From: an uncultured bacterium
GTDB lineage: Bacteria > UBA8248 > CAZNSX01
DNA: 64,000 nucleotides
Direction: 5' to 3'
Assembly: GCA_964575845.1 (NCBI GenBank)
Contig: CAZNSX010000007.1
Span: forward strand, 80,772 to 144,771
Shown here: positions 5,641 through 62,333 of the stretch, one piece after another
How positions within the stretch are numbered: the stretch's first letter is position 1
Layout of the letters: every line of letters starts with the position of its first letter
The notes under the pieces: generated by a model
What the model was told of the DNA's origin: nothing
Database searches by the model: none
What the model saw: the letters and a program-made list of their open reading frames with translations, nothing else
Made by a program: the position numbers and the translations under genes

Positions 5641-5775
5641 TGAAAAGTTTTTCCTCCTGTCCAATTAACATACCATAAGCACGAGCCCCAAAAATAACTT
5701 CTCACTCCTTTCCCTGGAAGCCAAGGCTAGACTCAGGCCGCTTCTGGATATTCACAAGGAAGAACTTGCCCCTTT

Positions 5776-8376: not shown

Positions 8377-8388
8377 TTGGTTCTTCCT

Positions 8389-9471: not shown

Positions 9472-9472
9472 T

Positions 9473-10570: not shown

Positions 10571-10620
10571 GGGACAAGCTCCAGGGTGAGAAAAGCGAGT
10601 TCTTGCTCATAAGGCCTTTT

Positions 10621-10648
10621 AGTATAAAGCATTTTAGATTCCATGCAA
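10621..10648 (-). promoter_or_regulatory. candidate sigma70-type promoter inside the trpC-pheA gap
   Basis: The minus strand reads TTGCAT, a 16-nt spacer, then TATACT, about 50 nt upstream of the pheA GTG. This is sequence pattern only. Confidence 0.35.
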
Positions 10649-10846
10649 GGTCTCAGGCTTGCCAGGTGGCCTTCTCTCTCTCTTACGCCTCAGACTTTCC
10701 ATTATCCTTTTTCCCCTGAATTATGGGCTGAAGGGAATGTAGCCCGTTGAGGCCTTTTTGGGGAGAGCGGGTTAGGCGGGTAACTTTGCGGGTGTCCTTC
10801 GCTTGGTTGCTAAGATTGGCTCCGAGATCTCCTTGGCGGCACTCTC

Positions 10847-11668
10847 TCAGGCGAGGCCCACGAGCTCGCGGATCTTCTCCCTCGGGTCGTCCGCGCACAT
10901 GAGGGTCTCCCCCACCAGTATGGCTCTCACGCCCGCCCCACTGATGGCCTCCACCTGGGAGGGGCTCGTTATCCCGCTCTCGGCCACAAGGGTGAGAGCG
11001 GCGCGGCGCTCAGGAGGAATCTTGCCCGCGAGCTTAAGTGTCATGCCGGGATTTGTCTTGAAGGTTTTGAGGTCGCGGTTATTGATACCGATGATAAGAG
11101 TTGAAGTCCCGAGCGCGCGTGAGAGCTCTTCCTCGGTATGCACCTCGAGAAGAGCCTCCATCCCGAGCTCCCTGCTCAAGGCGAGAAGCTCCCCAAGCTC
11201 CCGGTCACCCAGGATAGCGGCTATGAGAAGCACGGCGTCGGCTCCGAAGAGGCGCCCCTCATAAACCTGGTAGGGCTCCACCGTGAAGTCCTTCTGAAGA
11301 AGGGGGAGTGAGACACGCTCTCTCACACGGGTGAGATGCCCGAGCTCCCCACGAAAGCCCCTCCTCTCAGTGAGGACCGATATGGCCGAGGCGCCACCCT
11401 CCTCATAGAGAAGGGCCTTCTTCTCGGGCTCATACCGGGAAGCGATGAGGCCCCGGGAGGGAGACGCCTTCTTGAGCTCGGCGATGACGTGAAGGGAGGC
11501 GCCGGAGGGAGGCGGCGCCCTGAGGGCTCCCAGAAAATCCCGCGGCGGAGGGGCCTCCCTGAGGCGGGCTTTGAGCTCGGAAAGGGGAACCCGTGCCCTT
11601 CTCTTTTCGAGGTCCTCCCGGACGCCTTCAAGGAGGCTGCCGAGAAGGTTTGACTTTTTTGTCACCAT
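10847..11668 (-). CDS. trpC: indole-3-glycerol phosphate synthase
   Basis: IAELKKASPS.G, LTE...F.G, KDF and INNRDL motifs. Confidence 0.9.
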   Translation of the reverse strand: MVTKKSNLLGSLLEGVREDLEKRRARVPLSELKARLREAPPPRDFLGALRAPPPSGASLHVIAELKKASPSRGLIASRYEPEKKALLYEEGGASAISVLTERRGFRGELGHLTRVRERVSLPLLQKDFTVEPYQVYEGRLFGADAVLLIAAILGDRELGELLALSRELGMEALLEVHTEEELSRALGTSTLIIGINNRDLKTFKTNPGMTLKLAGKIPPERRAALTLVAESGITSPSQVEAISGAGVRAILVGETLMCADDPREKIRELVGLA

Positions 11669-11682
11669 GGGAAAAAGATGGC

Positions 11683-12693
11683 TCAGCGGTTTGTGAACTC
11701 CCTGAGGCCCTCAAGCTTCTTGAGGGCTGCTCCGGAGTCTATGGCTTGGGCCGAAGCCTCTACTCCCTCCTTCAGGTCTGAGGCTATCTCGCCAGCATAA
11801 AGGGCGGCCGCGGCGTTCAGGAGCACAACGTCCCGCTCCGGGCCCTTCTTTCCTCTCAAGACCTCGAGGGTTATGCGGGCGTTCTCTCCGATGTCGCCTC
11901 CCCGGATGCTCTCGGGCCCGGCCCGGCGGAGGCCGAGCTCCTCGGGGACTAAGGTGTAGCCTCTGACAGAGCCTCCGGCAAGCTCGGCCACCCGGGTGGG
12001 AGCGCAGATACTGACCTCATCCATGCCATCCTCGCCATGCACCACGAGAGCCCTATGGCTTCCAAGTGCCCCCAGGACCCGTGCGAGCAGCTCTGTCAGC
12101 CTTCCATCATACACTCCTATGAGCTGGGCACGGGCACCGGCGGGATTCGTGAGTGGCCCCATTATATTGAAGATGCTCCTCACGCCGAGCTCCCTGCGGG
12201 GCCCTATGGCGTGCCTCATGGCTCCGTGATGGATGGGGGCGAAGAGGAATCCTATCCCCAGCGTATCCAGACATTCTCTCACCCGCTCGGGAGGAGCCTC
12301 GATATTGACGCCCAGAGCCTGAAGGAGGTCGGCGCTCCCGCAGCGGCTGCTCACGGCACGGTTTCCATGCTTTGCCATGGGCGCACCGGCCCCGGCGGCC
12401 ACAAGGGCCGCCACGGTGGAAATATTGAAAGTGTGAGCGCCGTCGCCGCCGGTGCCAGCGGTGTCCACCAAGAGGTGATGGCGAGAGCTTATCTTCAAGG
12501 CCCTGGCCCTCATGGCCCTTGCGCTGCCCACGATCTCCTCCACCGTCTCACCCTTGATCCTGAGGGCCATGAGATAGCCACCTATCTGGGCGGGGGTGGC
12601 CTCCCCGGCCATGATCTCATCCATCACAGCCTGGGCTTCCTCAGCCGTCAGGTCACGCCCCTCAACAAGCTTTGCTATGGCCTCTCTGATCAT
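11683..12693 (-). CDS. trpD: anthranilate phosphoribosyltransferase
   Basis: VDTAGTGGDG..TFNIST and KHGNR..SS..GSADLL motifs. Confidence 0.9.
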   Translation of the reverse strand: MIREAIAKLVEGRDLTAEEAQAVMDEIMAGEATPAQIGGYLMALRIKGETVEEIVGSARAMRARALKISSRHHLLVDTAGTGGDGAHTFNISTVAALVAAGAGAPMAKHGNRAVSSRCGSADLLQALGVNIEAPPERVRECLDTLGIGFLFAPIHHGAMRHAIGPRRELGVRSIFNIMGPLTNPAGARAQLIGVYDGRLTELLARVLGALGSHRALVVHGEDGMDEVSICAPTRVAELAGGSVRGYTLVPEELGLRRAGPESIRGGDIGENARITLEVLRGKKGPERDVVLLNAAAALYAGEIASDLKEGVEASAQAIDSGAALKKLEGLREFTNR

Positions 12694-12731
12694 TTCTAAT
12701 TCCGCTCCGGAAGAAAGGTCATGAGCCCCTC

Positions 12732-13319
12732 TCAGGCCGCCTCAACCACGTTTCTCAGAAGGGCTTTCCCTTGGGCCGTGAGGATGGACTCGGGATGAAA
12801 CTGCACCCCCTCTAGCCTCATGCCCCGTCCCCGAAGGGCCATCACCTCCCCCACCTGCGTTCGAGCTGAAACCTCGAACTCTCGCGGCAGGCTCTCCTCC
12901 TCCACGATGAGAGAATGATAGCGGGTCGCCTCAAAGGGGTTGGGAAGCCCCTTGAAGGCACCCTTACCATCATGGTGGATGGGGGAGGTTTTTCCGTGCA
13001 TGATGCGGGGTGCTCTCACGACCCTTCCACCGAAAGCGAAGGCTATGGCCTGATGGCCCAGGCAAACTCCGAAGATGGGCACTCTGCCCGCCGCCTTCTC
13101 TATGAGGGGCACGGTGATGCCAGCCTGCTCGGGCCTGCCTGGCCCGGGTGAGATGACGATGAGCTCATAGCCCCCCTGAAGGGCCTGCTCGGGGGTCAAG
13201 GCATCATTTCGCATGACATCCACTTCCGCTCCCAGCTCGGAAAGATATTGGACGAGATTAAAGGTGAAGGAATCATAGTTATCGATCATGAGAACCCGCT
13301 TCAAGGCTTCACTCCCCAA
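12732..13319 (-). CDS. trpG: anthranilate synthase component II (glutamine amidotransferase)
   Basis: IDNYDSFT.NLVQYL, GVCLGHQ and QFHPES motifs. Confidence 0.9.
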   Translation of the reverse strand: MGSEALKRVLMIDNYDSFTFNLVQYLSELGAEVDVMRNDALTPEQALQGGYELIVISPGPGRPEQAGITVPLIEKAAGRVPIFGVCLGHQAIAFAFGGRVVRAPRIMHGKTSPIHHDGKGAFKGLPNPFEATRYHSLIVEEESLPREFEVSARTQVGEVMALRGRGMRLEGVQFHPESILTAQGKALLRNVVEAA

Positions 13320-13322
13320 ATT

Positions 13323-14810
13323 TTAGTCCAGGCCCCCCTGGGCCATCTCCATGGCCCGGATGAGAGCCCTCCCTTTGTTCATGGTTTCTTCAAATTCGCG
13401 CTCGGGCGTGGAATCATATACCACGCCTGCTCCCACCTGAAGGTATACCTTTCCTCCGGAGACGATGATCGTTCTTATGGTTATGCAGGTGTCCATGTTG
13501 CCGGTGAAGCCGAAGTAGCCCACGGCTCCGGCATAGGGCCCCCTCCTCGTGGGCTCCAGCTCATCTATTATTTCCATGGCCCTCACCTTTGGAGCCCCCG
13601 AGACGGTCCCCGCAGGAAAACAGGCCCTCATCACATCGTAGGCCGTCTTGCCCGACGCGAGTTCCCCCCGCACATTTGAGACGATGTGCATCACGTGGGA
13701 GTATCGCTCCACCACCATGAGCTCATTCACCTCTACCGTTCCCCGGCGAGAGACCCGGCCCACGTCATTTCTGCCGAGGTCCACCAGCATAATGTGCTCG
13801 GCCCGCTCCTTCACATCTGAGAGAAGCTCTTCCTCAAGCACGCGGTCCTCCAATTCTGTCCTACCCCGGGGTCTCGTGCCCGCAATGGGCCTCACCTCCA
13901 CCCTCTCCCCTTCCCGGCGGACAAGTACCTCCGGCGAGGAGCCCACCAGGATGAGGTCATTAAGCCTCAGGTAGAACATATAGGGGGATGGGTTTATGGT
14001 GCGAAGAGCTCTATACATATTGAAGGGATGGGCCCTCAGGGGAGCCTCCAGCCGCTGGGACAAAACCACCTGAATGGCATCGCCGGCCTCCACATAGCCT
14101 TTTGCCCGAAGAACCGCCTCTTCAAAGCCCTCCTTGCTGAAGTTGGAGCCGAGGGTTATGGAAGCACCCCCCATCTCCCCCTGATGAAAGGGAGGTCTGG
14201 GAGCCTTGAGCTTTCGGATAATCCCCTCGATGCGCTCAGTGGCCCTCCGGTAGGCCCCCTCAACATCCCCATCACTCAGGTGGGCGTTACAGACCACCTT
14301 GATCTTCTGGGCTACGTTGTCGAAGATGAGGAGGCTGTCGGTTATGATGAAAAAACAGTCAGGAAGGTCGAGGTCGTCCTCACTGAGCTCGGGCAGGCGC
14401 TCGAAGAAGCGCACCATGTCATATGCCATGTAGCCGACGGCTCCCCCGAAGAACCGCGGAAGTCCCTCGGGCAGGGCGGGCCGGTACCCGGCCATGAGTT
14501 CCTCAAGCGCCTGAAGCGGGTCCTTCACCCCATCTCTTTCATCCACCCTTCCCTCGCTTCTCACCCAGACGCGGTCGCCCTTGCTGCTGAAAACGAGAGA
14601 GGGCTCGGACCCGAGAAAACTGTAGCGTGCCCACTTCTCCCCTCCCTCAACGCTCTCAAGAAGGAAGGAGCCAGTCCCCCCTTCTATCTTGAGGAAAGCC
14701 GAGACCGGGGTTTCAAGGTCCGCCATGATCTCCCGGTAAACGGGAACCAGATTGCCTTTCCGGCAGAGCCTTTTGAACTCATTGAGGTCGGGGCAATAGC
14801 TGACGGCCAT
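13323..14810 (-). CDS. trpE: anthranilate synthase component I
   Basis: Chorismate-binding motifs are present ([44 protein letters not shown]). The start is set at the ATG at 14810 (MAVSYCPD), which is preceded by GGGAAGGAA. Confidence 0.9.
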
Positions 14811-14834
14811 CTTGATTCCTTCCCAAATCCAGAG

Positions 14835-14873
14835 ACAAAAAAGCCATGAACCGGAGAGTTCGGCCCATGGCTT
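14835..14873 (-). terminator. intrinsic terminator / attenuator hairpin 24 nt upstream of the trpE start
   Basis: The minus strand reads AAGCCATGGGCCGAACTCTCCGGTTCATGGCTTTTTTG. This is an 8-bp stem (AAGCCATG/CATGGCTT, with inner CCG/CGG pairs) followed by a T6 run. Confidence 0.55.
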
Positions 14874-14904
14874 TCTAACTAACAGCAACAAGCTTTACAG
14901 AAGG

Positions 14905-26172: not shown

Positions 26173-27516
26173 TCAAGCGCTCCCGGGGGCGAGGGGAGGC
26201 TCGGGCATGTATCTCCGGACCCTCTCCTCCACTTCCCTGACGCCCAGTTCCCTTCCCTCCTGAACCTCCCAGATGGAGACAATGGGGAAGAACTTGGTGA
26301 AGAGGAGGAAAAGCAGGACAAAGAGGGCGAAGGACCCGACCAGAATCCCCCATTCCACCAGGCTGGGGATATAAATCCCATGGGGCAGCTCCAGGCTGGG
26401 GGTTGCAAGGGTGGGCACGATGATTATGAAGCGCTCGAGCCACATGCCCAGGATGACGCTCAGGGAGGCTATGAGGGTCCCCTTTATGGTTCGAAACCTC
26501 CTTATGCCCATGAGGGTCATGGGTACGGCGAAGTTGGCCACCACCATAGTCCAGAAATAGGGGGCATGGGGACCCGTGAACTTGGCCCAGAAGACCTTCA
26601 TCTCCTCGGGCTCGCCGCCGTAGTAGCCCGTGAGGTACTCGGCAAAGGTGAAATAAAACCAGAGGAAGGACATGACGAGGAGGAGGATACCCAGGTAGTT
26701 GAAGTGGATGGGCTTGAGATAAGACTCTAAGTGGTAGGCCTTCCTGAAGGCCAGCATGACGATGATCAGTGCCGCGATGCCTGAGTAAATGGCCCCGGCG
26801 ACAAAATAGGGGCCGAAGATCGTGCTGTGCCAGCCGGGCTGAAGGGTCATGGAGAAAACAAAAGAGACCACCGTGTGCACGGATACGGCCACGGGGATTA
26901 CCACCACGGCCATGATGGCTATGGCCACGTTCAGAACCCTCTGCTGGCGGGCGGTACCCTGCCAGCCCAGGGAAAGCACCTGATAGAGCCACCGGTAGCG
27001 GCTGGTCCCGTCGCGCAGGATGGCTATGTCGGGGATCAAGGGTATGTAGAGGTATATGGTGCTGGCCATGAGATAGGCGGAGATGCTGGTCACATCCCAG
27101 AGCAGGGGCGACTGATAGCGCCCGTACCATAGAATGTTGAGCAGTCGGTCGGGACGGCCCAGGTCTACTATGATGTTGGCCGCGCCTATGAAGAGGACCA
27201 TCACCGTTATGACCTCGGCCATTCGGGTTATGGGCCTGCGCCACTCGGCCTTTGCCATGCGGAGGATGGCCGAGATGAGGGTTCCCGCATGGCTTATGCC
27301 GATGAAGAAGACGAAGTTGGTGATGTAGAAGCCCCAGGAGACGGGCTGATTGAGGCCCGTGACCCCCAGGCCCCCGAACCACTGGACCACATAGGAGGCC
27401 AGGCCCCAGGCGACGAGGAGCAGGAGAAATCCCAGAAAAAACCAGAACCTCCAGCCCGTCGAAAGGATCGGCCCGAGGAGGAGATGATCCTGAAAGGCCT
27501 TTTCAGAGGAGTTCAT
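26173..27516 (-). CDS. NrfD/PsrC/ActC-type polytopic quinone-interacting membrane subunit
   Basis: A 447-aa protein with about 10 transmembrane helices and GLGVTGLNQPVSWGFYITNFVFFIGISHAGTLISAILR...WRRPITRMAE. It overlaps the FeS gene by 14 nt. Confidence 0.85.
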   Translation of the reverse strand: MNSSEKAFQDHLLLGPILSTGWRFWFFLGFLLLLVAWGLASYVVQWFGGLGVTGLNQPVSWGFYITNFVFFIGISHAGTLISAILRMAKAEWRRPITRMAEVITVMVLFIGAANIIVDLGRPDRLLNILWYGRYQSPLLWDVTSISAYLMASTIYLYIPLIPDIAILRDGTSRYRWLYQVLSLGWQGTARQQRVLNVAIAIMAVVVIPVAVSVHTVVSFVFSMTLQPGWHSTIFGPYFVAGAIYSGIAALIIVMLAFRKAYHLESYLKPIHFNYLGILLLVMSFLWFYFTFAEYLTGYYGGEPEEMKVFWAKFTGPHAPYFWTMVVANFAVPMTLMGIRRFRTIKGTLIASLSVILGMWLERFIIIVPTLATPSLELPHGIYIPSLVEWGILVGSFALFVLLFLLFTKFFPIVSIWEVQEGRELGVREVEERVRRYMPEPPLAPGSA

Positions 27517-28201
27517 CCTTCTCCCCTTCTATCAGGTAGACCACCTTGGGGCGGGTGCCCAGCTCCTCCAGCAACCGGAAGGCCCGGGAGCTCTTGTGGA
27601 GGCGAGAGACCGCGCTATCAGGGTCCTCCAAGTCGCCGAAGGTTATAGCTCCCGCCGGGCAGGTCTGGGCACACGCCGGGATGAAATCCCCTTCCTCTAG
27701 CTCTCTCCCCTCGGCCCTGACGCGGTCCCTTGCCTTCTGGAGGCGGTGGACGCAGAAGGTGCACTTCTCCACCACTCCTTTGGGCCTCAGGGCTACATCG
27801 GGGTTTCGGTGAGTGCGCAGGTCCTCTCGATTGGTATAGAGATGCCAGTTGAAATACTTGGCCGTGTAAGGACAGGCGGCCATGCAGAACCTGCACCCTA
27901 TGCAGCGGGCGTAGTTCTGGGCCACGATGCCCTCGGGGTCCCGGTAGGTGGCGTGCACCGGGCAGACTTTGGTGCAGGGAGGCTCATCGCAGTGGAGGCA
28001 GGGCCTGGGGATATAGCGGGCGTGAACCCTGGGATAGGGGCCGGCAACCTCTGTCACCATGTCCATCCAGCTAAGGATCCTTCCCCTGGCCGCTTCGCCG
28101 GGTTCCACATAGGGGACATTGTTCTCAGACTTGCAGGCGAGGACGCAGGCCTGGCAGGCGGTGCATCGGTCAAGGTCGATAGCCATTCCCCAGAGGGGCA
28201 T
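27503..28201 (-). CDS. 4Fe-4S ferredoxin-type subunit (PsrB/NrfC/ActB2-like)
   Basis: Several CxxCxxCxxxC(P) clusters: CTACQACVLAC, CLHCDEPPCTKVCP, CIGCRFCMAACP, CTFC...CAQTCP. Confidence 0.85.
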   Translation of the reverse strand: MPLWGMAIDLDRCTACQACVLACKSENNVPYVEPGEAARGRILSWMDMVTEVAGPYPRVHARYIPRPCLHCDEPPCTKVCPVHATYRDPEGIVAQNYARCIGCRFCMAACPYTAKYFNWHLYTNREDLRTHRNPDVALRPKGVVEKCTFCVHRLQKARDRVRAEGRELEEGDFIPACAQTCPAGAITFGDLEDPDSAVSRLHKSSRAFRLLEELGTRPKVVYLIEGEKDELL

Positions 28202-28214
28202 GCCCCGGTCCTCC

Positions 28215-30698
28215 TTATGCTTTCCTCACCTTGACCCGAGTTCCTGTCAGCACCCCGAGACCCCTCAGGGTATCCTCTTCGGGGATGATGATGGAGCTGG
28301 GGTTTGCCCCCGTCTTCCCGGCCCATTCGCTCAGCGCCTTGTGCCCCTGGCCAAAGGGAATATTGACCACTCCGGGCATGGCCCCCGCGTAAAGCCTGGC
28401 CCTCACCTTTATCTTCCCCTTGGAGGATTCCACCCAGACCAGGTCTCCATCCTTTATCCCCAGCCTCCTTGCCGTGGCCGGGTTCAGCTCCACCCAGTTC
28501 CCCCAGCGCATTCGCAAGTGGACGCCCAGACTCTCCTGAAGCTCGGGCAGGAGGGCCGTCCTCCCTCCCATCTGGCTCATGAGCTTATAGGTATTGAGCA
28601 CCAGAAGAGAATCACTCTCCGCGGACTCCCCCTCGGAGGGCTGATAGTGCGGGAGGAAGAGCTTATCACCACGGGCGGCCAACTTCTGCTCCTTAAGGAT
28701 TCGCTCCAGGGCTTCCTGGGGGGAGAGCTTCTCCCTCAGCGCCACCTCTTCCGCCGCCCCATCGAGGAGGCGCTTCAGGCCCAGGGAGTAGAACTCATAC
28801 CGCCCGCTCTCGGTCTTGAGCAGATGCTTCACGCCGCCGTAAGAATCCTCCGGGTCCCACCACGCCCCTCTCTTTCGGAGGGCTTCCCAGAACTCATCAT
28901 AGTCTTCGAACTCCTTCGCTCGGTAGCCCTGGCCAGCCAGGATTCGTCTGAAGGCTTCATCCGCTGGCTCTGAGACCACATATCCCCGCTCCGCCTCAAA
29001 GAGGCCCTGGCCGCGCTCATAGAGGAGGTCCGCATAGCTCTCCCATTCAAAGGCCCCAGAAAGAGGCTCTCCCACGGCACGGGCGAGTTCGAGGAGAAGG
29101 TCTCCTGTGGAGCGGGTGTTGTGGAGGGGCTTAACGGCCGGCCGCCCCAGGCTGAAGGCCGTGAAGCCTGAGAGGTGGGCCATGCTGTCATCCTGCCAGC
29201 GCTCCAGATAGGTGGAGTCGGGAAGGACGAGGTCGGCTTCAAGTGCGCTCTCATCCATGAAGGGGGAGAAGCTCACCACCAGAGGCACCCGCGCAAGAGC
29301 CCGCTTGAGCTCCTCTCCGCGCGGGTGAGAGAAAAGCGGGTTCGTAAAATAGAAGAAGAGCACCTCCAGCCCATAGGGCTCGCCCTTGAGAAGGGCCCGG
29401 GGCAGAGCCTCCACCGCATGGTCTGCCAGGAAATACTTCCCCTTCCCGGCCCCGTCTATCCGGGGCATGGAGAGCCCCCTCCTCGCAACCTCATCCAGCT
29501 CCGGCTCCTCCCAGGGAGCCAGGGGCAACTCCCCCTGGATGAGGATCGTCCCCGGCTTTCCAAGGTTGCCGGTCAGGGCGTTCAGGCTGTGAATGGCGAG
29601 ACGGGTGTATATGTCGTTCGGGTGAAAGGCGGGGCCCCGCTCGCCGAGGGCCAGAGCGCTCTTGTGCTCAGAGAACGCCCGGGCCATGGCGATGATGTCA
29701 CGTATGGGAACCCCTGTTATCTCGGAGACCCTGGGAAGGGTATATTCTTGGAGGACTAGGCTCTTATAGCCCATGTGGCGGCGCCCGGCCTCGTCAGGCC
29801 AGTCCTCAAACCCAAAGGTGTGCTCCCTCACGAATTCCTTATCAAAGCGCCCCTCGCTCACGATCACATGGGCCAGGCCAAGGGCAAGGGCGCAGTCGGT
29901 CCCGGGCCTTATGGGAACCCAACGGTCAGCTTTGGCCCCTGTGACCGAGAGGCGGGTCTCCACCTGGACCAGCTTTCCCCGCCGACCGGGTCGGCCCTGT
30001 CGGAGGTGTCCGTAAGTGGAAAGCTGGTATACGGGAGAGATCCAGGACTCCAGCAGGTTGCAGCCGAAGGAGAGGATGAAATCGCACTCTCTCAGGTCAT
30101 AGCTAAGGGGGAGCCGAATTCCCTGGGTGAGAAAGTGCGTCTTCGTCACCTTCTCCACTTCAAGGCAGCGGTTTCGGATGTAGTTGGGAGAGCCATAAAC
30201 GCGGAAGAACCTCTGAATAAGGCCGTCCACAGAGCCCCGGTATTGCCCCCCCAGGAGGGCCACCTTATGGGGCTCACCCTTCTCCCGCAGCTCCCCCAGG
30301 CGACCGGCCAAAGTCCTTAATGCCTCCTCCCAGCTTATGGGCTGCCAGCGGCCCTCGCCCCGTTTTCCGCTGCGGCGAAGAGGCCCGCGGATACGCTCGG
30401 GATGGTAGAGGAACTGAAGGCCTGCATGGCCCTTGGGGCAGAGGCGGCCGCGGTTTACGGGATGGTTGGGGTTTCCCTCGATCTTTACAGCGCGCCCATC
30501 CACCACCCTCACAAGAATCCCACACCCCCCCGGGCAGACCTGGCAAATGGTGGGCACCAGCTCTTCCTCGTAGTCCGGCCAGGGGTCTCTCTCAATGGAG
30601 GAGACCTCGCTAAGAGCCCCTCCCCCCTTGGCCAGGGCCGCGGCACCGGCGGCCATGCCTCCGAGCAACTTAAGGAATCCCCTTCGGTCGAGAAGCAT
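28215..30698 (-). CDS. TAT-exported molybdopterin (bis-PGD) oxidoreductase large subunit, Psr/Phs/ActB1/QrcB-like
   Basis: A twin-arginine signal (DRRGFLKLLGG) and an intact N-terminal FS0 motif (CQVCPGGCGILV...x...RLCPKG). It is 827 aa. Confidence 0.85.
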   Translation of the reverse strand: MLLDRRGFLKLLGGMAAGAAALAKGGGALSEVSSIERDPWPDYEEELVPTICQVCPGGCGILVRVVDGRAVKIEGNPNHPVNRGRLCPKGHAGLQFLYHPERIRGPLRRSGKRGEGRWQPISWEEALRTLAGRLGELREKGEPHKVALLGGQYRGSVDGLIQRFFRVYGSPNYIRNRCLEVEKVTKTHFLTQGIRLPLSYDLRECDFILSFGCNLLESWISPVYQLSTYGHLRQGRPGRRGKLVQVETRLSVTGAKADRWVPIRPGTDCALALGLAHVIVSEGRFDKEFVREHTFGFEDWPDEAGRRHMGYKSLVLQEYTLPRVSEITGVPIRDIIAMARAFSEHKSALALGERGPAFHPNDIYTRLAIHSLNALTGNLGKPGTILIQGELPLAPWEEPELDEVARRGLSMPRIDGAGKGKYFLADHAVEALPRALLKGEPYGLEVLFFYFTNPLFSHPRGEELKRALARVPLVVSFSPFMDESALEADLVLPDSTYLERWQDDSMAHLSGFTAFSLGRPAVKPLHNTRSTGDLLLELARAVGEPLSGAFEWESYADLLYERGQGLFEAERGYVVSEPADEAFRRILAGQGYRAKEFEDYDEFWEALRKRGAWWDPEDSYGGVKHLLKTESGRYEFYSLGLKRLLDGAAEEVALREKLSPQEALERILKEQKLAARGDKLFLPHYQPSEGESAESDSLLVLNTYKLMSQMGGRTALLPELQESLGVHLRMRWGNWVELNPATARRLGIKDGDLVWVESSKGKIKVRARLYAGAMPGVVNIPFGQGHKALSEWAGKTGANPSSIIIPEEDTLRGLGVLTGTRVKVRKA

Positions 30699-33099: not shown

Positions 33100-36000
33100 T
33101 CAGACCCACGCGTGAAGGGAGCGCCGATCGCGGATGAGCTTTTCCTTTGAGAGGTCCTTGAGGGAGGCGTCTTGCAGTCTTTCCAGGATCCCCCTTATCT
33201 CATCATCCATCCCGCCGTCACCACATTTTTTTCTAGCCGATTCTTCCGCGCATATTCTGGCTTCCTCGTACTCACCCGTGGCGGCAAGAGCGCAGGCCAA
33301 AGATAGGTAGGCTTCCGACATCCTTGCCGGAGCCTGAATTTGCTCCCCAACCTCTAAGCTTCTTCGGAGCACTTTTACCGCCTCTCCATGTTCCCCCTTC
33401 TCCGTGAGCGCGCGGCCCAGGTTCTCAAGGGTCACGGCCACGCCTTCGGTGTGTTTGATCTCCTCTCTGAATTTCAGGCTCTCCTGGTAGCAATCAACCG
33501 CCTTATCGAGCTGGTTCAGGCAGTGATAAACATTGCCCAGGCTGTTTAGGGATGTGCCTGTCCCCAGGGCATCACCCACCTGACGCCGGATGTCCAGAGC
33601 CTTTTGATAATATTCGACCGCTTCCCCGTAGGACCCGCGCAGGCACGCAACCAAGCCCAGGTTGTAAAGTGACGAGGCCATGCCCGGGAGGTGTTCCAGC
33701 GCCTCCTCGCTCTCAAGACATTTTTCAAAATGCCCCGTTGCTTTCTCATAGTCCCCCTCCCTGACGAAGGAGGCCCCCAGCACGTTGTGGGCGCGCGTGA
33801 TGTCGGAGAGGCTCCCCAGTTCCTCGGCAAGGCGGAGGCTCTCGTAAGCCCAGCGCCTCGCCTCTTGACAATCGTGCTGGCGGAAGTGAATCCAGCCGAG
33901 CAGGCCCAAACACCTACTCATCTCGACGGAACTCTCCCCCCCGGGGAAGGCCTCCAGCACCTCCTTGGCTTCGAGAAGCTTGCGCAGGCCATCCTCGAAC
34001 TTTCCGCGCCTCTCATGGGCCAACCCGACCCTGGCTTTTGCCCGGGCCCACTCCAGGGGCCATTTTCTCCTGGCGGGGTCTTCTTCCTCAAGGAGGGCGA
34101 GCAATACCTCGTTTTCCCGGATGGACCTCTCATATTCGGCGGTGAAGAAATAGACGCTGCTCAAGCCCTCTCTGGCCTGTATAATGAATCCCGTTTTCTT
34201 GGCCTTTCCCTCAGGGCTAAGTTTCCCGAACGCCCCGATGGCCCGCCGGTAACACTCAGCAGCCTCTTCGTTTGCGTAAACCTCCTTGGCCTTATTCCCG
34301 GCCCTCCCCTGGAACTCGAGGGCGCTCTCCCAGGCCTCGCCGTAATAGTAGTGGTGGGCCAGGATGCCCCAGTTCTCCTCCAACCTCTCAGGATAAAGCT
34401 CCCCTATGGCGGAGGCGACGGCCCGGTGCAGTTCCCTTCGCCTCTTGAGCAGGAGGCCCCCGTAAGCAACCTCCTGGATGAAAGCATGCTTGAAACTGTA
34501 AATAGGTTCCGGGAAATGAGACTTCTCGTAAATGAACTCTGCACCCTCCAGTTCTTTCACATGCTGTTCGAGTTTTTCCTTCTCGACGCTCACCCTCTGG
34601 AGAAGGGGGAGGGAGAAGTCTCTGCCAAATACGGAGGCCTCCTGGAGGGTTCGCTTAACTTCACCCTCCAGATGGTCGATCCGGGCCGATATCACCTCCT
34701 GAATGGTGCCGGGCACCTCCATTCTCGTGAGCGCGTCCGCGCCCCGGTACGTGAGATCTTTGGCCACCGCCCCGCTCTCCACTAAAGATTTAGTTATCTC
34801 CTCTATGTAGAAGGGATTGCCCTCGGCTTTGGCCAGGATTAGCCTTCTGACCTCCTCAGATACCCTTTCCGTCTCCAGGATGTTCTCTATTATCTCGTTG
34901 CACTCTCCTTCGGAAAGCCGGTCCACTGCTATCTGGTTGAAATATGACTTGCCCGCGCACTCGCAAGCGTATCCGGGTCTGAAGGTTACGAGGACCATCA
35001 TGGAGCTTCCCGCTATGGAGTCGACCAAAAATTTGAGAAGCTCCTCAGATGTCTTATCAATCCAGTGTAGGTTTTCGAGGACCATCACAAGAGGTCGAAC
35101 CTGGCATTCCTTCAACACGACAGCCCTAATGGCCTCGAAGGTCCTCCGCCTTCTCTCGAGGGGCTCGAGGCTCCTCAAGAGTTCTGCCCCCTCCCCTTCC
35201 AAGCTCACCGAAAATAGGTTCAGAAGGAAAGGCGAAGCCCATCTCAGGTCCCCCCCTATCCCGTCAAGTTTTCTCTCGACCTTATGGCGGATGTTCTCCT
35301 CTCGGTCGCGCTCTTCGACCTGAAATTCTCTTTTTAACAGCTCTATCCAGGGCAGGTAAGCCACGGAGCTCCCGTAGGAGACGCAGCGGCCCTCGAGGTA
35401 TCCGGTGTCCTCACCCGTAAGGCTCTTTCTGAACTCGTAGAGCAGCCTTGATTTCCCGACTCCCGCCTCACCGACAAGGCATACCAACTGTCCGCGACCG
35501 CTCTTCACCTTTTCTTTGCAATCCCGCAGCGTGTCGAGCTCCCGCGCCCGGCCCACGAGTCTCGTGAGCCTTCGCTCCTCAGAGAGGTCGGCCCGGATGC
35601 TCTTGACCCCCGTGACCCTGTAAGCGGAAACCTTTTCCTCCCTTCCCTTCACCTCAAGTTCACCTACCGGCTCAAACTCGAAGTACTCTTTCACCTTTTG
35701 GTAACTATTCTCACTTACCAGGATGGTCCCCGGGGAGGCCAGGCTCTCCATGCGGGCGGCCAAGTTCGTGGTGTCGCCCACAGCGGTGTAGTCCATCCGG
35801 AGGTTATTGCCTATGCTCCCCACAACCACAGGGCCGGTGTTGAGTCCTATCCGGACCCCGAAAGCAATACCCCTCTCACACTTGAGCTCTTCCCCGTAAG
35901 CCCCTAACGCCTCCTGCATCGAGAGGGCCGCGTGGACCGCCCTCCTGGGCCCATCCTCGTGGGAGATGGGCGCACCGAAGAGGGCCATTATGCCGTCCCC

Positions 36001-36456
36001 CGTGAACTGGTTCACCGACCCCTCGTAGCGGTGCACCGAATCCATGAGGATTTCAAAGCACCTGTTCATCATTGAGTGAACCTCTTCGGGGTCGAGCCTC
36101 TCGGAGATGGAGGTAAATCCGCTGACATCAGCGAAGAGCACCGTGACTATCTTCCTCTCCCCTTCGATGGCGCTCTTGGAGGAGAGGATTTTTTCCGCAA
36201 GATGCCTGGGAGTGTAACTCTGGATCTTCTGGTTTAGGTCCTCGGCGGCATATCCGGGCGGCATCCGCTCTTCCGCAGACGGCGAGGGCTCGGTCAACTT
36301 TCGGCCGCAGCCCCCGCAGAAGGAGAAATCCGCGGGGTTTTCAAACCCGCAGGCCGGGCATAGATTCCCCAGCCGCGAGCCGCATCTCCCGCAGAAATTC
36401 ACCCCTGCGGGGTTTTCAAATCCACATTGGCGGCAAATCATTTTGCCGGTCCTCAT
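33100..36456 (-). CDS. multidomain signalling protein: double zinc ribbon, class III adenylate/guanylate cyclase, AAA/STAND ATPase, TPR repeats
   Basis: CRQCG..CGRCG..CPACG..CGGCG; then RKIVTVLFADVSGFTS...FTGDGIMALFGAP (cyclase core); then a P-loop, LVGEAGVGKSRL; then a long TPR-like helical C-terminus. Confidence 0.85.
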   Translation of the reverse strand: MRTGKMICRQCGFENPAGVNFCGRCGSRLGNLCPACGFENPADFSFCGGCGRKLTEPSPSAEERMPPGYAAEDLNQKIQSYTPRHLAEKILSSKSAIEGERKIVTVLFADVSGFTSISERLDPEEVHSMMNRCFEILMDSVHRYEGSVNQFTGDGIMALFGAPISHEDGPRRAVHAALSMQEALGAYGEELKCERGIAFGVRIGLNTGPVVVGSIGNNLRMDYTAVGDTTNLAARMESLASPGTILVSENSYQKVKEYFEFEPVGELEVKGREEKVSAYRVTGVKSIRADLSEERRLTRLVGRARELDTLRDCKEKVKSGRGQLVCLVGEAGVGKSRLLYEFRKSLTGEDTGYLEGRCVSYGSSVAYLPWIELLKREFQVEERDREENIRHKVERKLDGIGGDLRWASPFLLNLFSVSLEGEGAELLRSLEPLERRRRTFEAIRAVVLKECQVRPLVMVLENLHWIDKTSEELLKFLVDSIAGSSMMVLVTFRPGYACECAGKSYFNQIAVDRLSEGECNEIIENILETERVSEEVRRLILAKAEGNPFYIEEITKSLVESGAVAKDLTYRGADALTRMEVPGTIQEVISARIDHLEGEVKRTLQEASVFGRDFSLPLLQRVSVEKEKLEQHVKELEGAEFIYEKSHFPEPIYSFKHAFIQEVAYGGLLLKRRRELHRAVASAIGELYPERLEENWGILAHHYYYGEAWESALEFQGRAGNKAKEVYANEEAAECYRRAIGAFGKLSPEGKAKKTGFIIQAREGLSSVYFFTAEYERSIRENEVLLALLEEEDPARRKWPLEWARAKARVGLAHERRGKFEDGLRKLLEAKEVLEAFPGGESSVEMSRCLGLLGWIHFRQHDCQEARRWAYESLRLAEELGSLSDITRAHNVLGASFVREGDYEKATGHFEKCLESEEALEHLPGMASSLYNLGLVACLRGSYGEAVEYYQKALDIRRQVGDALGTGTSLNSLGNVYHCLNQLDKAVDCYQESLKFREEIKHTEGVAVTLENLGRALTEKGEHGEAVKVLRRSLEVGEQIQAPARMSEAYLSLACALAATGEYEEARICAEESARKKCGDGGMDDEIRGILERLQDASLKDLSKEKLIRDRRSLHAWV

Positions 36457-47920: not shown

Positions 47921-49243
47921 TCATTGCGTGCGAAATTCCTCAAGGATATCTCTAAAGAATGTCCATTTCGTAATATCGGGGAGGTTTCTTAGCTCCGCAT
48001 ACGAATACCAGTTGTCATTGAGTTCCATCGCCGCAAGAGCCTTTTCAGCCTCTTCAAGATATATCTCAGAATTACCAGGGTCAACGATAGGTAATCGTAA
48101 AAGGAGAAGCTCGAGGCCTGCTATGTTTGGCATAATGTCATACACGACACTTCCAATATGCAGGGCTGAAGCAACCTGTTCTTTTTCTAATGGTTCATAT
48201 CCTTGCAAATGGCTCATATCCATCCATCGCTGGACTATTTCAACCGGCTTCTCTGCAAGTGTTTCTTTGGCGGGCCATGAAACAAATGCTCCCGTTGGAT
48301 ATATCCCCCTTTGATGAAGACTACTCAACACCTCTATATTTCTTATTATATCTCCGTAAGAAATTCCTACCCGCTCAAAAGTAAGCCGCCAAAACTCCTT
48401 CCAGAAATCCAGACCCTCTTTAGCAAGTTCTTGATGTTGTCCTAAGAGCTCGAAACGGTCTTTCCCCGCTTTTCGCGCCGCAAGCCAAAACAGGCGCTTT
48501 CTCTCCTTATCGGGCATTTCCTGAATCTCACTTTCGCTTAGACCGTTAGCCCAGTTATATTGTTCTGTGAGAACGCTTCTCTCCATGTCTTTGTAGATAA
48601 GCGAGCAGATTCTTTCCATGTTAAACCAATAAATCCGCGGTATATCCTTCTTCCTTATTATCCCCAGGTCATCTTCCTCTGCAACTTCTAGTAGCTTTCT
48701 TTCTATTTCTTTCGCTTTACTTGAGGGGTCTCGGATAATGGCTTGGAAAATATAAAACATGATGTTTTGGTTAACGACTTGCATTCTTTTCCAATGCTCT
48801 TCATTGAGGTATCTCGCGTCAGTGGGAAATCCTCGTGATTCAAGTAATTCTTTCTCGTAGGGCTTCCACCGGGCATGAACGATAACATTTCGGAGGTACT
48901 TAATTGCCAAGTAGTCATCGATGATTTCATTACTCGCTTTGACCCCTGCTTGCTCAAATGCATCACGCAAGCTTTTAATCTTTTCGCCATTCTTGGCGCC
49001 CTCTTTAAAGTAAATTGTTAAAATATTCAAGCCATGCTGCTCTTTCCATTTTTCTTTCCATTCCTTAAGCGCACTTTCAATGCTGGCGATCATCATTACA
49101 GCAAATATACGGCAATAGGAGGCATTACAGAGGTCTCTAACTGCCGCCTTCAAGGGGTGCGTTAAAGCGGCTAATCTCCCGCTCTGAAGAAAAATAATAT
49201 CATCGGTATAGATCTCAATAGCCTCAGCTCGTGGCATGACCAT
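47921..49243 (-). CDS. uncharacterised 440-aa protein: an N-terminal RNxxxH (HEPN-type) domain and an unknown helical C-terminal region
   Basis: The motif IKYLRNVIVHARW (R-x4-H) lies about 125 aa from the N-terminus, preceded by a helical segment. The remaining approximately 270 aa match nothing I recognise. GGAGGAG lies 6 nt before the ATG at 49243. It is in an AT-richer segment. Confidence 0.6.
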   Translation of the reverse strand: MVMPRAEAIEIYTDDIIFLQSGRLAALTHPLKAAVRDLCNASYCRIFAVMMIASIESALKEWKEKWKEQHGLNILTIYFKEGAKNGEKIKSLRDAFEQAGVKASNEIIDDYLAIKYLRNVIVHARWKPYEKELLESRGFPTDARYLNEEHWKRMQVVNQNIMFYIFQAIIRDPSSKAKEIERKLLEVAEEDDLGIIRKKDIPRIYWFNMERICSLIYKDMERSVLTEQYNWANGLSESEIQEMPDKERKRLFWLAARKAGKDRFELLGQHQELAKEGLDFWKEFWRLTFERVGISYGDIIRNIEVLSSLHQRGIYPTGAFVSWPAKETLAEKPVEIVQRWMDMSHLQGYEPLEKEQVASALHIGSVVYDIMPNIAGLELLLLRLPIVDPGNSEIYLEEAEKALAAMELNDNWYSYAELRNLPDITKWTFFRDILEEFRTQ

Positions 49244-49266
49244 AATATCTCCTCCAACACTCATCA

Positions 49267-59364: not shown

Positions 59365-60018
59365 TCAGATAATCTCCACCCGGATGTCTGAGGCGGCATT
59401 TGCCAGGAGGTCTTTAAAAGCTCGGGCCTCTTCTTCGCTCGCCACGATGGCCCCATAGTGCATGGGGATTGCCACCTTGGGGTGGATGGTCTGGGCGGCG
59501 GCCACCGCCTCCTCGGGAGTCATGACATAGGTGCCACTCACGGGCAGGAGCGCGATGTCGATTTTCTTCAGCTCCTTCATCTCCGGGATGTAATCGGTAT
59601 CGCCCGTATGGTATAGGCGAACGCCGCCCATCGTCAAGACGAAGCCCAGGTTCTCTTCACTCGGCGGGTGGAAGACCTCCTTGCGCTCAGGGTCTCGATA
59701 TTTATCGATATTGTAGGCCCTGACCGCCTCCACCTTCACCCCCTTTACGGTCTGACTCTCGCCGGGAAGGATGACCCTGAAGTTTCCGCCCAACTTGGCC
59801 TTGGAGGAACTGGAGCCCACCAGGACGGTATCCTCTTTGGATACCTGCTTCACCTTATCGGGGTCGCAATGATCGAAATGGTCATGGGTTATGAGAATAA
59901 GGTCCGCCTTCTCGGGCTCGTCGGGCAGCACGTAAGGGTCCACATAGACCACCTGTTCCCCTTTGACCTTTATGGTATCGTGGCCGAGCCTCTCTATTTC
60001 CAGCCCCATGATTTTCAT
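59365..60018 (-). CDS. metallo-beta-lactamase-fold hydrolase (UPF0173-like)
   Basis: ITHDHFDHCD motif; 217 aa. Confidence 0.75.
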   Translation of the reverse strand: MKIMGLEIERLGHDTIKVKGEQVVYVDPYVLPDEPEKADLILITHDHFDHCDPDKVKQVSKEDTVLVGSSSSKAKLGGNFRVILPGESQTVKGVKVEAVRAYNIDKYRDPERKEVFHPPSEENLGFVLTMGGVRLYHTGDTDYIPEMKELKKIDIALLPVSGTYVMTPEEAVAAAQTIHPKVAIPMHYGAIVASEEEARAFKDLLANAASDIRVEII

Positions 60019-60214: not shown

Positions 60215-60679
60215 TTATTCCTCCTCTATTTGTCCTTCCCACTCTATTGCAATGCCCCGCCTCACGCTCTGGGAGGCCGGGCACTTGCTTTCGTGAACCT
60301 CCAGAGCCCGCTCTGCCTCCTCCCTCTTGCCCCTTGGGATCTTGACGTGGTATTTGACGTGGATGCGGGTTATCAAAGCCTGGCCGTCCACCTTCTCGAT
60401 GTAGCCCTCCACCTCCGAGATCAGCTTATCGGGGTGGCTAGGAATCCCGCGCGCCTCCAGCGCGCCGCCAAGGTTTCCAGTCATTCAGGCGGCAACGGCC
60501 GAGATGATGTGGTCCAATGTGGCCGGAAGCTCCTCTTCCACCTCCCGGCCGTAAAACTTCTTTATCCCCCCGTGCATGCCGTATCGGACGGGTTCTTTGA
60601 AGTCCTCAATATAGGCCCTTCTCAGAACCCCTTTATCCTTCAATATCTTCACCCTTGATACATGAACCACCTCTCCCAT
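60215..60679 (-). CDS. osmC: OsmC/Ohr-family peroxiredoxin with an in-frame TGA (60485-60487) at the catalytic Cys position; candidate selenoprotein
   Basis: Two track ORFs (60485-60679 and 60215-60484) are in the same frame, separated only by TGA. The joined sequence reads ...LDHIISAVAA-U-MTGNLGGAL...EVHESKCPASQSV. This aligns with the OsmC AAHAAC-FSMAL and CPVS motifs. Confidence 0.65.
60441..60478 (-). other. SECIS-like stem-loop starting 9 nt downstream of the in-frame UGA
   Basis: The minus strand reads GGAAACCUUGGCGGCGCGCUGGAGGCGCGCGGGGAUUCC. The lower stem is GGAA.CC/GGAUUCC, the upper stem is a 6-bp GCGCGC stem, and the apical loop is UGGAG. Confidence 0.5.
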
Positions 60680-60725
60680 AAGGCAAACCTCCTCTCTATT
60701 AGACGTCCTCTGTGTCTCTTAGGCC

Positions 60726-62333
60726 CTACCTTCGATCCCGCTTCTTTTCTGTTTTCTCCCTCTCCCGGTCCCGGAGAACGCGCCTCAGGATCTTGCCCGA
60801 GGCGGACTTGGGGATGGAGTCCAGAAACTCCACCTCTCTCACCCTCTTGTAGCCGGCAACATGCTCGGCCACAAAGGCCATTATTTCATCGGCCGAGGCC
60901 CTGGCCCCATCTTTGAGCACCACGAAGGCCTTGGGGATCTCCCCCGCCTCACTGTCGGGCTTGCTCGTGACGGCGCAGTCGGCAACGGCAGGATGGCGAT
61001 GCAGGAGAGCCTCCACCTCCCCGGGGGCAACAGCGAAGCCCTTGTATTTGATCATCTCCTTCTTCCGGTCCTTAATATAAACGTAGCCATCCTCATCCAT
61101 GGCGACGAGGTCACCCGTATAGAGCCAGCCCTCCCGCAGCACCCTCTCTGTCTCCTCCTCATCTCGCCAGTATCCCTTCATAACGTGGGGGCCCCTGACA
61201 ACTAGCTCTCCTACCTCTCCCGGCGCCACCTCCTCCCCACTCTCGGGATCAACCACTTTCTGGGGCTGGTCGGAGACAGGGGGCCCTATTGACGAGGGCT
61301 CGATGAGATCTGGCTCAAAATGGTTCATGTGGGTCACGGGAGAGGCCTCCGTGAGGCCATACACCATGAAGGTGGGAACTCCCGTGAGTTCCTCCAACCT
61401 GCGGCGCACCTCCGGGGGAAGGGAGGCGGCGCCGCTGGCGATGAAGCGCAGGCTTGAGAGGTCAAACTTCTTAAGGCTCGGGTACTCACAGAGAGAGAGA
61501 AGCGCAGGCGGCACCCCGTAGAAGAGGGTGACCCGGTGCTTCTCGATGAGCCTCAGGCACTCCTCGGCATTGAAGCGCTCCATGAGAACCTGGGCGGCGC
61601 CCTCATAAATGCACCCCCCCATTATCATGGTGCCGAAGATGTGATAGAGGGGAAGGAACACTATGACCCTATCCCGCTCGGTGACCCGGTGATTGGCGAC
61701 GAACTGGATGTAGTTGCTCACCAAATTACGGTGGGTAAGCATAACTCCTTTGGGAAGACCCGTGGTGCCGCTTGAGTAGGGAAGAGCTATGAGGTCCTCT
61801 GAAGGGGCAATAGGGGGTGCAGGAGGGCGGGAGGGGGGGTAGTCTCTCAAAAGCTCGTGGAAGAGGGGAAGGCCGTCGGCCGATGAATCCCCCACAAGAA
61901 CCACCGTTTCGAGCTCTGGCAGCTCCCCTCTGACCGCCCTGAGGATGGGGTAGTTATCTTCGTGCACTATGGCGACCCTGGCCCCGGAATCACGATGCTG
62001 GTGAAGCGTCTCCTCTTCCTTGAAGGTGGGGTTCAGCGGGGTGAATATGGCTCCCAGCTTGGAGACGGCATATACCGCTATCACAAACTCCGTTCGGTTA
62101 AACATGAAAAGTGAAACCCGATCTCCCTTCCGGACTCCCAGCTCCCTGAGGGCATGAGCAAAACTATTGGAGAGGGCTTCCAGCTCCCGGAAGGTTATCT
62201 CTTCATCCTCGAAGATTAGGGCTACATGGTCTGGAACCCGCCGCAGGCTCTCCTCAAGCATCCCGTGGAAGGGGATGTCGGGATATTCCAGGGAAGGCCT
62301 GAAATATTTCGGAAGCCGGCGCTTGCGCTCCAT
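60726..62333 (-). CDS. AMP-dependent acyl-CoA synthetase/ligase (FadD-like)
   Basis: YSSGTTGLPKGVMLTH, YGLTE, TGDL and IKYKGF..AP.E.E motifs. Confidence 0.85.
   Translation of the reverse strand: MERKRRLPKYFRPSLEYPDIPFHGMLEESLRRVPDHVALIFEDEEITFRELEALSNSFAHALRELGVRKGDRVSLFMFNRTEFVIAVYAVSKLGAIFTPLNPTFKEEETLHQHRDSGARVAIVHEDNYPILRAVRGELPELETVVLVGDSSADGLPLFHELLRDYPPSRPPAPPIAPSEDLIALPYSSGTTGLPKGVMLTHRNLVSNYIQFVANHRVTERDRVIVFLPLYHIFGTMIMGGCIYEGAAQVLMERFNAEECLRLIEKHRVTLFYGVPPALLSLCEYPSLKKFDLSSLRFIASGAASLPPEVRRRLEELTGVPTFMVYGLTEASPVTHMNHFEPDLIEPSSIGPPVSDQPQKVVDPESGEEVAPGEVGELVVRGPHVMKGYWRDEEETERVLREGWLYTGDLVAMDEDGYVYIKDRKKEMIKYKGFAVAPGEVEALLHRHPAVADCAVTSKPDSEAGEIPKAFVVLKDGARASADEIMAFVAEHVAGYKRVREVEFLDSIPKSASGKILRRVLRDREREKTEKKRDRR

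Follow-up and report, generated by a model that had tools for sequence, protein, structure and literature searches.

When two open reading frames follow each other in a single frame and are parted only by a TGA, it has to be asked whether that codon ends a gene or is decoded within one. This question is raised by a locus in a 64-kb (64,000-nt) stretch of DNA from an uncultured bacterium (hereafter the window), for which a first-pass annotation, made from the letters alone, had proposed an OsmC-like selenoprotein with a SECIS-like hairpin. Our analyses of the gene, its relatives and its RNA lead to the same answer. The locus is very probably a genuine Sec-decoding OsmC-family gene in which UGA codon 65 would be read as selenocysteine, and we give this reading, which is built on sequence comparison, a probability of roughly 0.88.

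Inspection of the sequence together with the ORF list confirmed that the two ORFs share one frame whose sole interruption is the TGA, and that the joined product, counted from the ATG at 60679-60677, has the 154 residues (64 + 1 + 89) stated in the first-pass annotation (Table 1). Across the UGA position it reads AVAA-U-MTGNLGGALEAR. The gene lies on the minus strand, a point on which that annotation had been silent.

Table 1. Features of the candidate selenoprotein locus and its neighbours (positions within the window)
Feature	Position	Strand	Remarks
AMP-binding acyl-CoA synthetase	60726-62333	-	Upstream neighbour; ends 47 nt before the candidate Sec-OsmC gene
Shine-Dalgarno-like GAGAGGAGG, purine-rich	60688-60696	-	8 nt 5' of the first ATG; read from sequence
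Single CDS of 154 codons plus TAA stop (60217-60215), OsmC-family, proposed Sec65	60679-60215	-	One frame, one internal TGA; Pfam OsmC E = 5e-13
ORF, N-terminal half	60679-60485	-	64 aa
In-frame UGA, proposed Sec65 codon, peroxidatic-Cys position	60485-60487	-	Aligned to first conserved Cys of 1ukk and 1qwi
ORF, C-terminal half	60484-60215	-	89 aa
Imperfect hairpin of 38 nt, GGAAACCUUGGCGGCGCGCUGGAGGCGCGCGGGAUUCC	60478-60441	-	-17.5 kcal/mol folded in isolation
Core SECIS-like stem-loop GCGCGC-UGGAG-GCGCGC (or 7-bp stem with GGA loop)	60449-60465	-	Fits bSECIS consensus; 94% paired in relatives
TGC codon, Cys133, proposed resolving cysteine (SKCPAS)	60281-60283	-	Aligned to CPVS cysteine of OsmC structures
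Metallo-beta-lactamase-fold protein	59365-60018	-	Neighbour on the other side

With Cys placed at the TGA, the joined protein scored 49.7 bits with the Pfam OsmC domain (PF02566; cutoff 27.5 bits, E = 5e-13), its residues 55-148 covering profile positions 9-100 of 100. Taken singly, the C-terminal half covered only positions 27-100 and the N-terminal half had no Pfam match, so that neither half represents a full OsmC domain, as had been claimed from the sequence alone. A sequence search of the PDB returned the OsmC proteins of T. thermophilus (1ukk, E = 1.3e-5) and E. coli (1qwi/1nye). In the HMMER alignments, the TGA column fell on the first conserved Cys of 1ukk, 1qwi and 1nye (aahaGCfsmal or aahaaCfsmal), and Cys133 in SKCPAS fell on the cysteine of their CPVS motif. 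This bears out the earlier assignment of the TGA to the first conserved OsmC cysteine and the retention of the second. In OsmC/Ohr proteins, the peroxidatic Cys lies in the first long helix, and the resolving Cys follows after some 65 residues in a CPxS-type motif; we take the first conserved cysteine and the CPVS cysteine to be these two residues. Both redox positions are occupied in the window protein, by the proposed U65 (UGA) and by C133. Among the 147 distinct CDS analysed, Cys133 was invariant (147/147) and codon column 65 held only TGA, TGC or TGT.

A structure model was made for the Cys homologue P0001, which is 61% identical to the window protein. This AlphaFold (AF2) model had a mean pLDDT of 77, with values of 86-95 over residues 61-156, and was poorly defined at residues 19-37 and 51-54. 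All of its PDB matches at E <= 0.001 (37/37) were of the OsmC/Ohr type, the best being 1qwi and 1ukk with TM 0.55-0.63. Residues 1-55 (MGExxHxS...GGIKKFYG) form a family-specific N-terminal region that was modelled with low confidence. Taken by homology and by analogy with OsmC/Ohr, the product is almost certainly an OsmC-superfamily thiol peroxidase, as predicted.

The protein search retrieved eleven full-length Cys homologues (144-190 aa, most of them 154-157), about sixty fragments of 85-94 aa, nearly all of which start exactly one residue past the TGA, and several N-terminal fragments, of which the two that were aligned (P0069 and P0076) stop just before the TGA column. Such a pattern of full-length Cys forms and fragments is, in sequence terms, the classic database signature of a selenoprotein. 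Closest to the C-terminal half was P0014, with 88% identity and the label Nitrospinota. We further collected 160 related loci, 80 from a scan of one genome per species and 80 from a metagenome scan. They span at least eight phyla, and submitters label the genomes as Nitrospinota, Methylomirabilota/Rokubacteria, Tectomicrobia, Acidobacteriota, Armatimonadota, Bacillota, Gemmatimonadota, Planctomycetota and others. Alignment of the joined protein with Cys-containing homologues had been suggested at the outset; when it was carried out, the peroxidatic-Cys column held TGA in 134/160 loci and TGC or TGT in 26/160, and no other codon occurred there.

Just past the UGA, the window RNA can fold as drawn in the first-pass annotation, with the pairings GGAA/UUCC, CCU/GGG and GCGCGC(U)/(G)GCGCGC and a loop of UGGAG or GGA. 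The start of this hairpin had been given as nine nucleotides after the UGA, which does not hold for the last UGA base, from which the distance is 6 nt, and corresponds to a count from the U. [quoted passage not shown] In a scan that was a simple re-implementation of these published criteria, and not bSECISearch, the window hairpin agreed with every one of them: the loop starts 25-26 nt past the UGA, and the upper stem, of 6 bp with the UGGAG loop or 7 bp with the GGA loop, has -11.2 kcal/mol. The spacing and shape claimed for a bacterial SECIS are accordingly those of the consensus. Rfam gave no match at gathering thresholds; its matches at E <= 10 (HDV ribozyme, flavivirus frameshift element) were noise. 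By itself, the stability of the hairpin is only mildly unusual. The energy of the 38-nt element corresponds to z = -1.6, with 13/200 shuffles folding equally well, and z-scores overall ranged from -0.8 to -1.6. As a control, we scanned 2,580 in-frame positions drawn at random from genes of the window; 8.6% of them agreed with the consensus and 2.1% had an energy of -11.2 kcal/mol or better.

The hairpin core sits inside codons for G-G-A-L-E-A-R, a nearly invariant peptide that constrains much of the hairpin sequence. It is conceivable on this ground that the hairpin is not a SECIS and arises as a by-product when G+C-rich genomes encode this peptide, with Sec insertion, if any, relying on another element, and the pass rate of about 9% at random positions under the loose consensus is in keeping with this. 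Comparison among the relatives argues against it. The consensus scan was passed by 99/110 distinct Sec-type sequences versus 8/24 of the Cys type. Over 65 distinct ALEAR-type sequences, 94% of the cells in the core stem were paired, whereas pairing fell to 29-61% when the partners were slid by 1-3 columns as a control. Moreover, the synonymous positions of the stem are frozen in the Sec forms only. Ala73 was encoded by GCG in 117/124 Sec forms and Ala76 in 96/120, against the preference for GCC at the other Ala columns of the same genes (915 GCC vs 561 GCG). The codon entropies of Ala73 (0.36) and Ala76 (0.95) were the lowest of 31 conserved four-fold columns in the Sec forms, the minimum elsewhere being 1.04, and were ordinary in the Cys forms (1.38 and 1.49). 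The Fisher p-values for this codon conservation overstate its significance because the sequences are phylogenetically related. To judge from codon use, the GCGCGC stem is held in the Sec forms by synonymous-site freezing against the genes' own preference. The GALEAR peptide is also found in distant Cys forms, where its codons do not pair (e.g. GGUGCAUUAGAAGCGCGA) and the hairpin is absent.

The by-product reading also fits poorly with the ALAARK clade, in which the peptide has changed and the ALEAR-type hairpin is lost. Found instead is CGCUAGC-N6-GCUAGCG, a new hairpin 8 nt nearer the UGA with a spacing of 17-18 nt. It consists of two Leu-Ala codon pairs in which Leu is encoded by CTA, a codon that is very rare elsewhere (69 occurrences at Leu70 and Leu74 vs 14 over the remaining Leu columns). 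One protein family therefore contains two or more hairpin architectures, with spacings of 26 or 17-18 nt. Other observations leave the by-product reading some room. Covariation of the SECIS helix did not exceed the shuffle controls, which often reached the observed values, and is not significant; compensatory double changes were limited to two, in L016 (C-G to U-A) and L042 (G-C to A-U), both in hairpin class A and none in class B. One Cys clade (L081-L089), the nearest to the Sec forms, keeps a similar hairpin without the UGA, which we infer to be the relic of a recent Sec-to-Cys switch. Taken together, a by-product of the peptide is an improbable explanation of the hairpin, and we continue to treat its core as a putative SECIS.

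The lower stem has to be judged differently from this core. It had been presented as part of the element together with the upper stem, for which the 94% pairing and the frozen codons speak. In contrast, the lower stem (GGAA/UUCC, CCU/GGG) is paired to 76% across the relatives; its only free, wobble-position pair (columns 12-45) is unpaired in 50/65 sequences, and conserved codons for Gly, Pro and Ile account for most of its bases. We reject it as a conserved element, although it may form in the window's own RNA.

Decoding of UGA as selenocysteine requires comparison with its reading as a standard amino acid without selenium, that is, as Trp or Gly by an alternative code or as Cys or Trp by near-cognate suppression. 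Some pipelines do translate the codon as W, and five full-length proteins in the protein search had W at the TGA column; in the two of these that were checked (P0011 and P0071), the DNA has TGA at column 65. The lack of Sec machinery in the sequence searched would also suit such a reading. For the host, this search covered the 64-kb window out of a 211,869-bp contig, in which ARAGORN found no tRNA and neither Pfam analysis of candidate ORFs nor tblastn with E. coli SelA/SelB/SelD found selA, selB or selD. The ORFs of SelA, SelB or SelD size in the window encode RpsA, M16 peptidases, DAHP synthase, CN hydrolase, a radical SAM protein and others. With 1.48 Mb of related loci added to the window, the same tblastn queries matched only IF-2 and EF-G in L013, and no tRNA-Sec was found in the 60 flanking loci scanned (L001-L060).

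Against a standard amino acid stands that TGA is the commonest stop in the window, where it ends 24/44 long ORFs, and the genetic code is therefore standard. A scan of the 64-kb window for other long ORF pairs joined by TGA gave no second convincing selenoprotein candidate and no other protein-like pair. Column 65 alternates with Cys codons only and never with TGG, and a conserved SECIS-type hairpin would have no role in simple suppression. We accordingly see only a slim chance for a standard amino acid at this position. Decoding as selenocysteine also receives indirect support from the lineage. Three MAGs labelled Nitrospinota/Nitrospinaceae (GTDB UBA8248) are among the ten bacteria richest in selenoproteins in BSepDB, with 48-54 selenoprotein genes, which matches the Nitrospinota label of P0014. 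A Methylomirabilota MAG with 63 predicted selenoprotein genes has also been described (PMC13188914).

The UGA might alternatively be a true stop, with separate polypeptides of 64 and 89 aa assembling into an OsmC-like fold. An ATG follows the TGA in the window and in 85/134 TGA loci, and the 89-aa piece is annotated as 'OsmC family protein' by gene callers and NCBI, in line with the earlier prediction that the gene would be mis-annotated as two fragments. However, the codon after the TGA is CTG, CTC or CTT (Leu) in 49/75 genomic TGA loci, so that the C-terminal half has no start there and is not independently initiated. In the window, no purine-rich Shine-Dalgarno motif precedes the internal ATG (60484-60482), the bases upstream of it being GCCGCCUGA. 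Furthermore, the break sits exactly at the catalytic Cys column, through which 26 homologues continue with TGC or TGT, and the split product would miss the catalytic residue altogether. Wherever a locus extended far enough upstream, the 64 N-terminal codons were conserved in frame, with the sole exception of L036, in which the N-terminal half is disrupted. Independent conservation of the two halves in close homologues had been named in the first-pass annotation as an observation that would speak against a selenoprotein; with Leu codons after the TGA and the N-terminal half kept in frame, the opposite was found. Separate polypeptides are thus very improbable. That the TGA is a nonsense mutation or an assembly artefact in an ordinary Cys-type gene, as a single in-frame stop one step from TGC or TGT and the disrupted L036 might suggest, is a negligible prospect given that 134 loci of many phyla share it with clear coding constraint in both halves, that both halves are intact in the window, and that the TGA-bearing stretch is unchanged in contigs of three independent public runs (one sediment and two soil metagenomes from two studies), which rules out an assembly error.

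For the preferred reading, a selenocysteine at codon 65, a course of events can be proposed in which the established bacterial pathway is assumed. On arrival of the ribosome at UGA codon 65, the stem-loop with the GCGCGC stem and UGGAG loop, which follows at 25-26 nt, would recruit the SelB.GTP.Sec-tRNA(Sec) complex, Sec would be inserted, and translation would run on to the terminal TAA. By analogy with the two-cysteine mechanism of OsmC/Ohr, the U65 selenolate would attack a hydroperoxide to give a selenenic acid, which would condense with Cys133 to a selenenylsulfide, to be reduced back by a cellular thiol reductant. Neighbourhood clustering over the 160 loci revealed no conserved partner gene. 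Neighbourhoods vary, and the largest real neighbour cluster was an SDR found at 11 loci, so that genomic context gives no clue to function, substrate or reductant.

OsmC-like selenoproteins as such have been known since 2005; what our analysis adds is a widespread clade outside the curated NF041052 model. Three sequences with a UxxT motif and a predicted SECIS, assigned to COG1765, were reported from the Sargasso Sea (Zhang, Fomenko and Gladyshev 2005), the family was found again in the GOS survey (Zhang and Gladyshev 2008), and it is listed in catalogues of 2022 and 2026. The mention of such metagenomic reports in the first-pass annotation was thus correct. This published family is catalogued as PF02566/COG1765 (YhfA) and has the NCBIfam model NF041052, 'OsmC-related (seleno)protein'. 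With it, the window clade shares an OsmC-superfamily fold, a UGA in frame at a position where homologues have Cys, a putative SECIS hairpin right behind this codon and a predicted thiol-dependent redox function. In a comparison made by model score and description, the two nevertheless differ. Against the NF041052 cutoff of 95 bits, the window protein reached 14.8 bits, and nine diverse Sec-type relatives and P0001 reached 16.8-23 bits or had no match. The local motif is U-[ML]-T-G-[TN] in the window clade versus UxxT in the Sargasso/GOS family. Finally, the Sargasso/GOS family stems from the surface ocean and the window clade from lineages of soil, sediment and groundwater, among them Nitrospinota, Methylomirabilota, Acidobacteriota and Armatimonadota.

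With OsmC (1qwi/1nye, 1ukk) and Ohr, the window protein has domain, fold and the two redox positions in common. It differs from them in the proposed replacement of the peroxidatic Cys by Sec, in an identity of only about 18-23%, in the family-specific N-terminal region and in its scores, which lay below the cutoffs for TIGR03562 (OsmC; 27.3 bits, cutoff 85.8), TIGR03561 (Ohr; 18.4 bits, cutoff 88.85) and TIGR03563 (SACOL1771; 16.2 bits, cutoff 166.15). Ten relatives gave similar outcomes with these three models. The closest NCBIfam subfamily is canonical OsmC (TIGR03562), far under its cutoff. By these profile scores, the window protein is outside the curated selenoprotein family NF041052 and outside the OsmC, Ohr and SACOL1771 subfamilies.

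The putative SECIS can likewise be compared with known elements. As in bacterial SECIS elements of the E. coli fdhF/fdnG type, the stem-loop lies inside the coding region just past the UGA, and UGGAG fits the N1-G-[G/U]-N-N2 loop of the bSECISearch consensus (Zhang and Gladyshev 2005, per PMC13188914), with a stem of 6-7 bp and about -11 kcal/mol. It has no Rfam match and exists in at least two architectures within one family, and its binding by SelB is putative; resemblance in sequence to the E. coli elements is not to be expected.

These comparisons open a tentative evolutionary reading, for which we see a little less than an even chance. Sec may have arisen a second time among OsmC-superfamily proteins in this clade, independently of the Sargasso/NF041052 family. 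The clade, which lies nearer to canonical OsmC, extends across at least eight phyla, mostly of soil and the subsurface, and is missing from curated selenoprotein models; its SECIS would have been rebuilt at least once at another distance from the UGA when ALEAR changed to ALAARK. If this is true, hundreds of public records carry a Sec protein as an 89-residue 'OsmC family protein'.

For annotation, the predicted selenoenzyme of 154 residues would correct a split into a 64-aa orphan and an 89-aa protein, here and at most of about 130 related loci, and it indicates that the curated OsmC selenoprotein model misses some Sec-containing OsmC clades. It would also add a predicted peroxide-detoxifying selenoprotein to selenoprotein-rich lineages, namely the Nitrospinota-labelled MAGs and Methylomirabilota. 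The two SECIS architectures in one protein family make it useful for studying how a SECIS rises and decays inside a coding sequence. Its members would form a natural series that leads from Sec forms through recently converted Cys forms, which keep a relic hairpin, to old Cys forms that have none, and the family should be useful for comparing Sec with Cys at the OsmC/Ohr active site.

Among genome and metagenome relatives of the OsmC-family gene that carry TGA at the active-site column, the hairpin downstream of this codon was also found in two further architectures. In the clade with the peptide ALAARK in place of ALEAR (L004, L008, L011, L013, L104-L160), a CGCUAGC-N6-GCUAGCG hairpin is located 17-18 nt past the TGA and is built from two Leu-Ala codon pairs with CTA, a codon that is otherwise very rare. 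A third, weaker form, GGGC-GGA-GCCC, was observed at L032, L036, L059, L074, L078, and L079. At the L036 locus on a Terriglobia chromosome (L036:9998-10051 and upstream), the region 5' of the TGA has several stops and the conserved N-terminal half is missing, which may reflect either a pseudogene or a fault in local assembly.

Five homologues (P0011, P0016, P0071, P0077, and P0078) have Trp at the active-site column as predicted in public resources such as JGI and Logan. Because the DNA reads TGA at this column in both loci of Trp-called proteins that were checked (L161 and L162), the gene prediction behind them evidently used a genetic code in which TGA stands for Trp.

Elsewhere in the window, the aromatic amino-acid biosynthesis run, which holds more ORFs between its two listed members, and the nearby gene for ribosomal protein S1 are an ordinary housekeeping context. 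The cluster at 26173-30698 is similar to a Psr/Nrf/ACIII-type complex, and its molybdopterin oxidoreductase catalytic subunit contains no in-frame TGA. If the ORF is real, MiaA and shikimate kinase in a single reading frame would be an unusual fusion. A 447-aa ORF (47921-49264, minus strand) had no Pfam match at E <= 1e-5.

Other genes in the window
Feature	Position	Strand	Context or domains
MiaA/shikimate kinase ORF, single, 502 aa	566-2074	-	IPP transferase (MiaA), residues 43-284; shikimate kinase, residues 336-497
Ribosomal protein S1	3751-5664		near aromatic amino-acid run
DAHP synthase	7333-8376	-	aromatic amino-acid biosynthesis run 7333-14891
Anthranilate synthase component I	13323-14891	-	aromatic amino-acid biosynthesis run 7333-14891
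Hydrophobic ORF	26173-27516	-	cluster 26173-30698
4Fe-4S ferredoxin-type ORF	27503-28201	-	cluster 26173-30698
Molybdopterin oxidoreductase catalytic subunit	28215-30698	-	cluster 26173-30698
1118-aa protein	33100-36456	-	N-terminal zinc ribbon, adenylate/guanylate cyclase, AAA ATPase, C-terminal TPR repeats

The Cys-type clade nearest to the Sec forms comprises the metagenome loci L081-L089, with TGT or TGC at the active-site column. These loci keep a hairpin, UGCGCU-GGA-AGCGCG, at the same site, with codons aligned to window 60487-60434 and 10 bp reachable if G.U pairs are allowed; in more distant Cys forms, the hairpin is lost. The hairpin of L081-L089 has the appearance of a SECIS relic that outlasted a recent switch from Sec to Cys.
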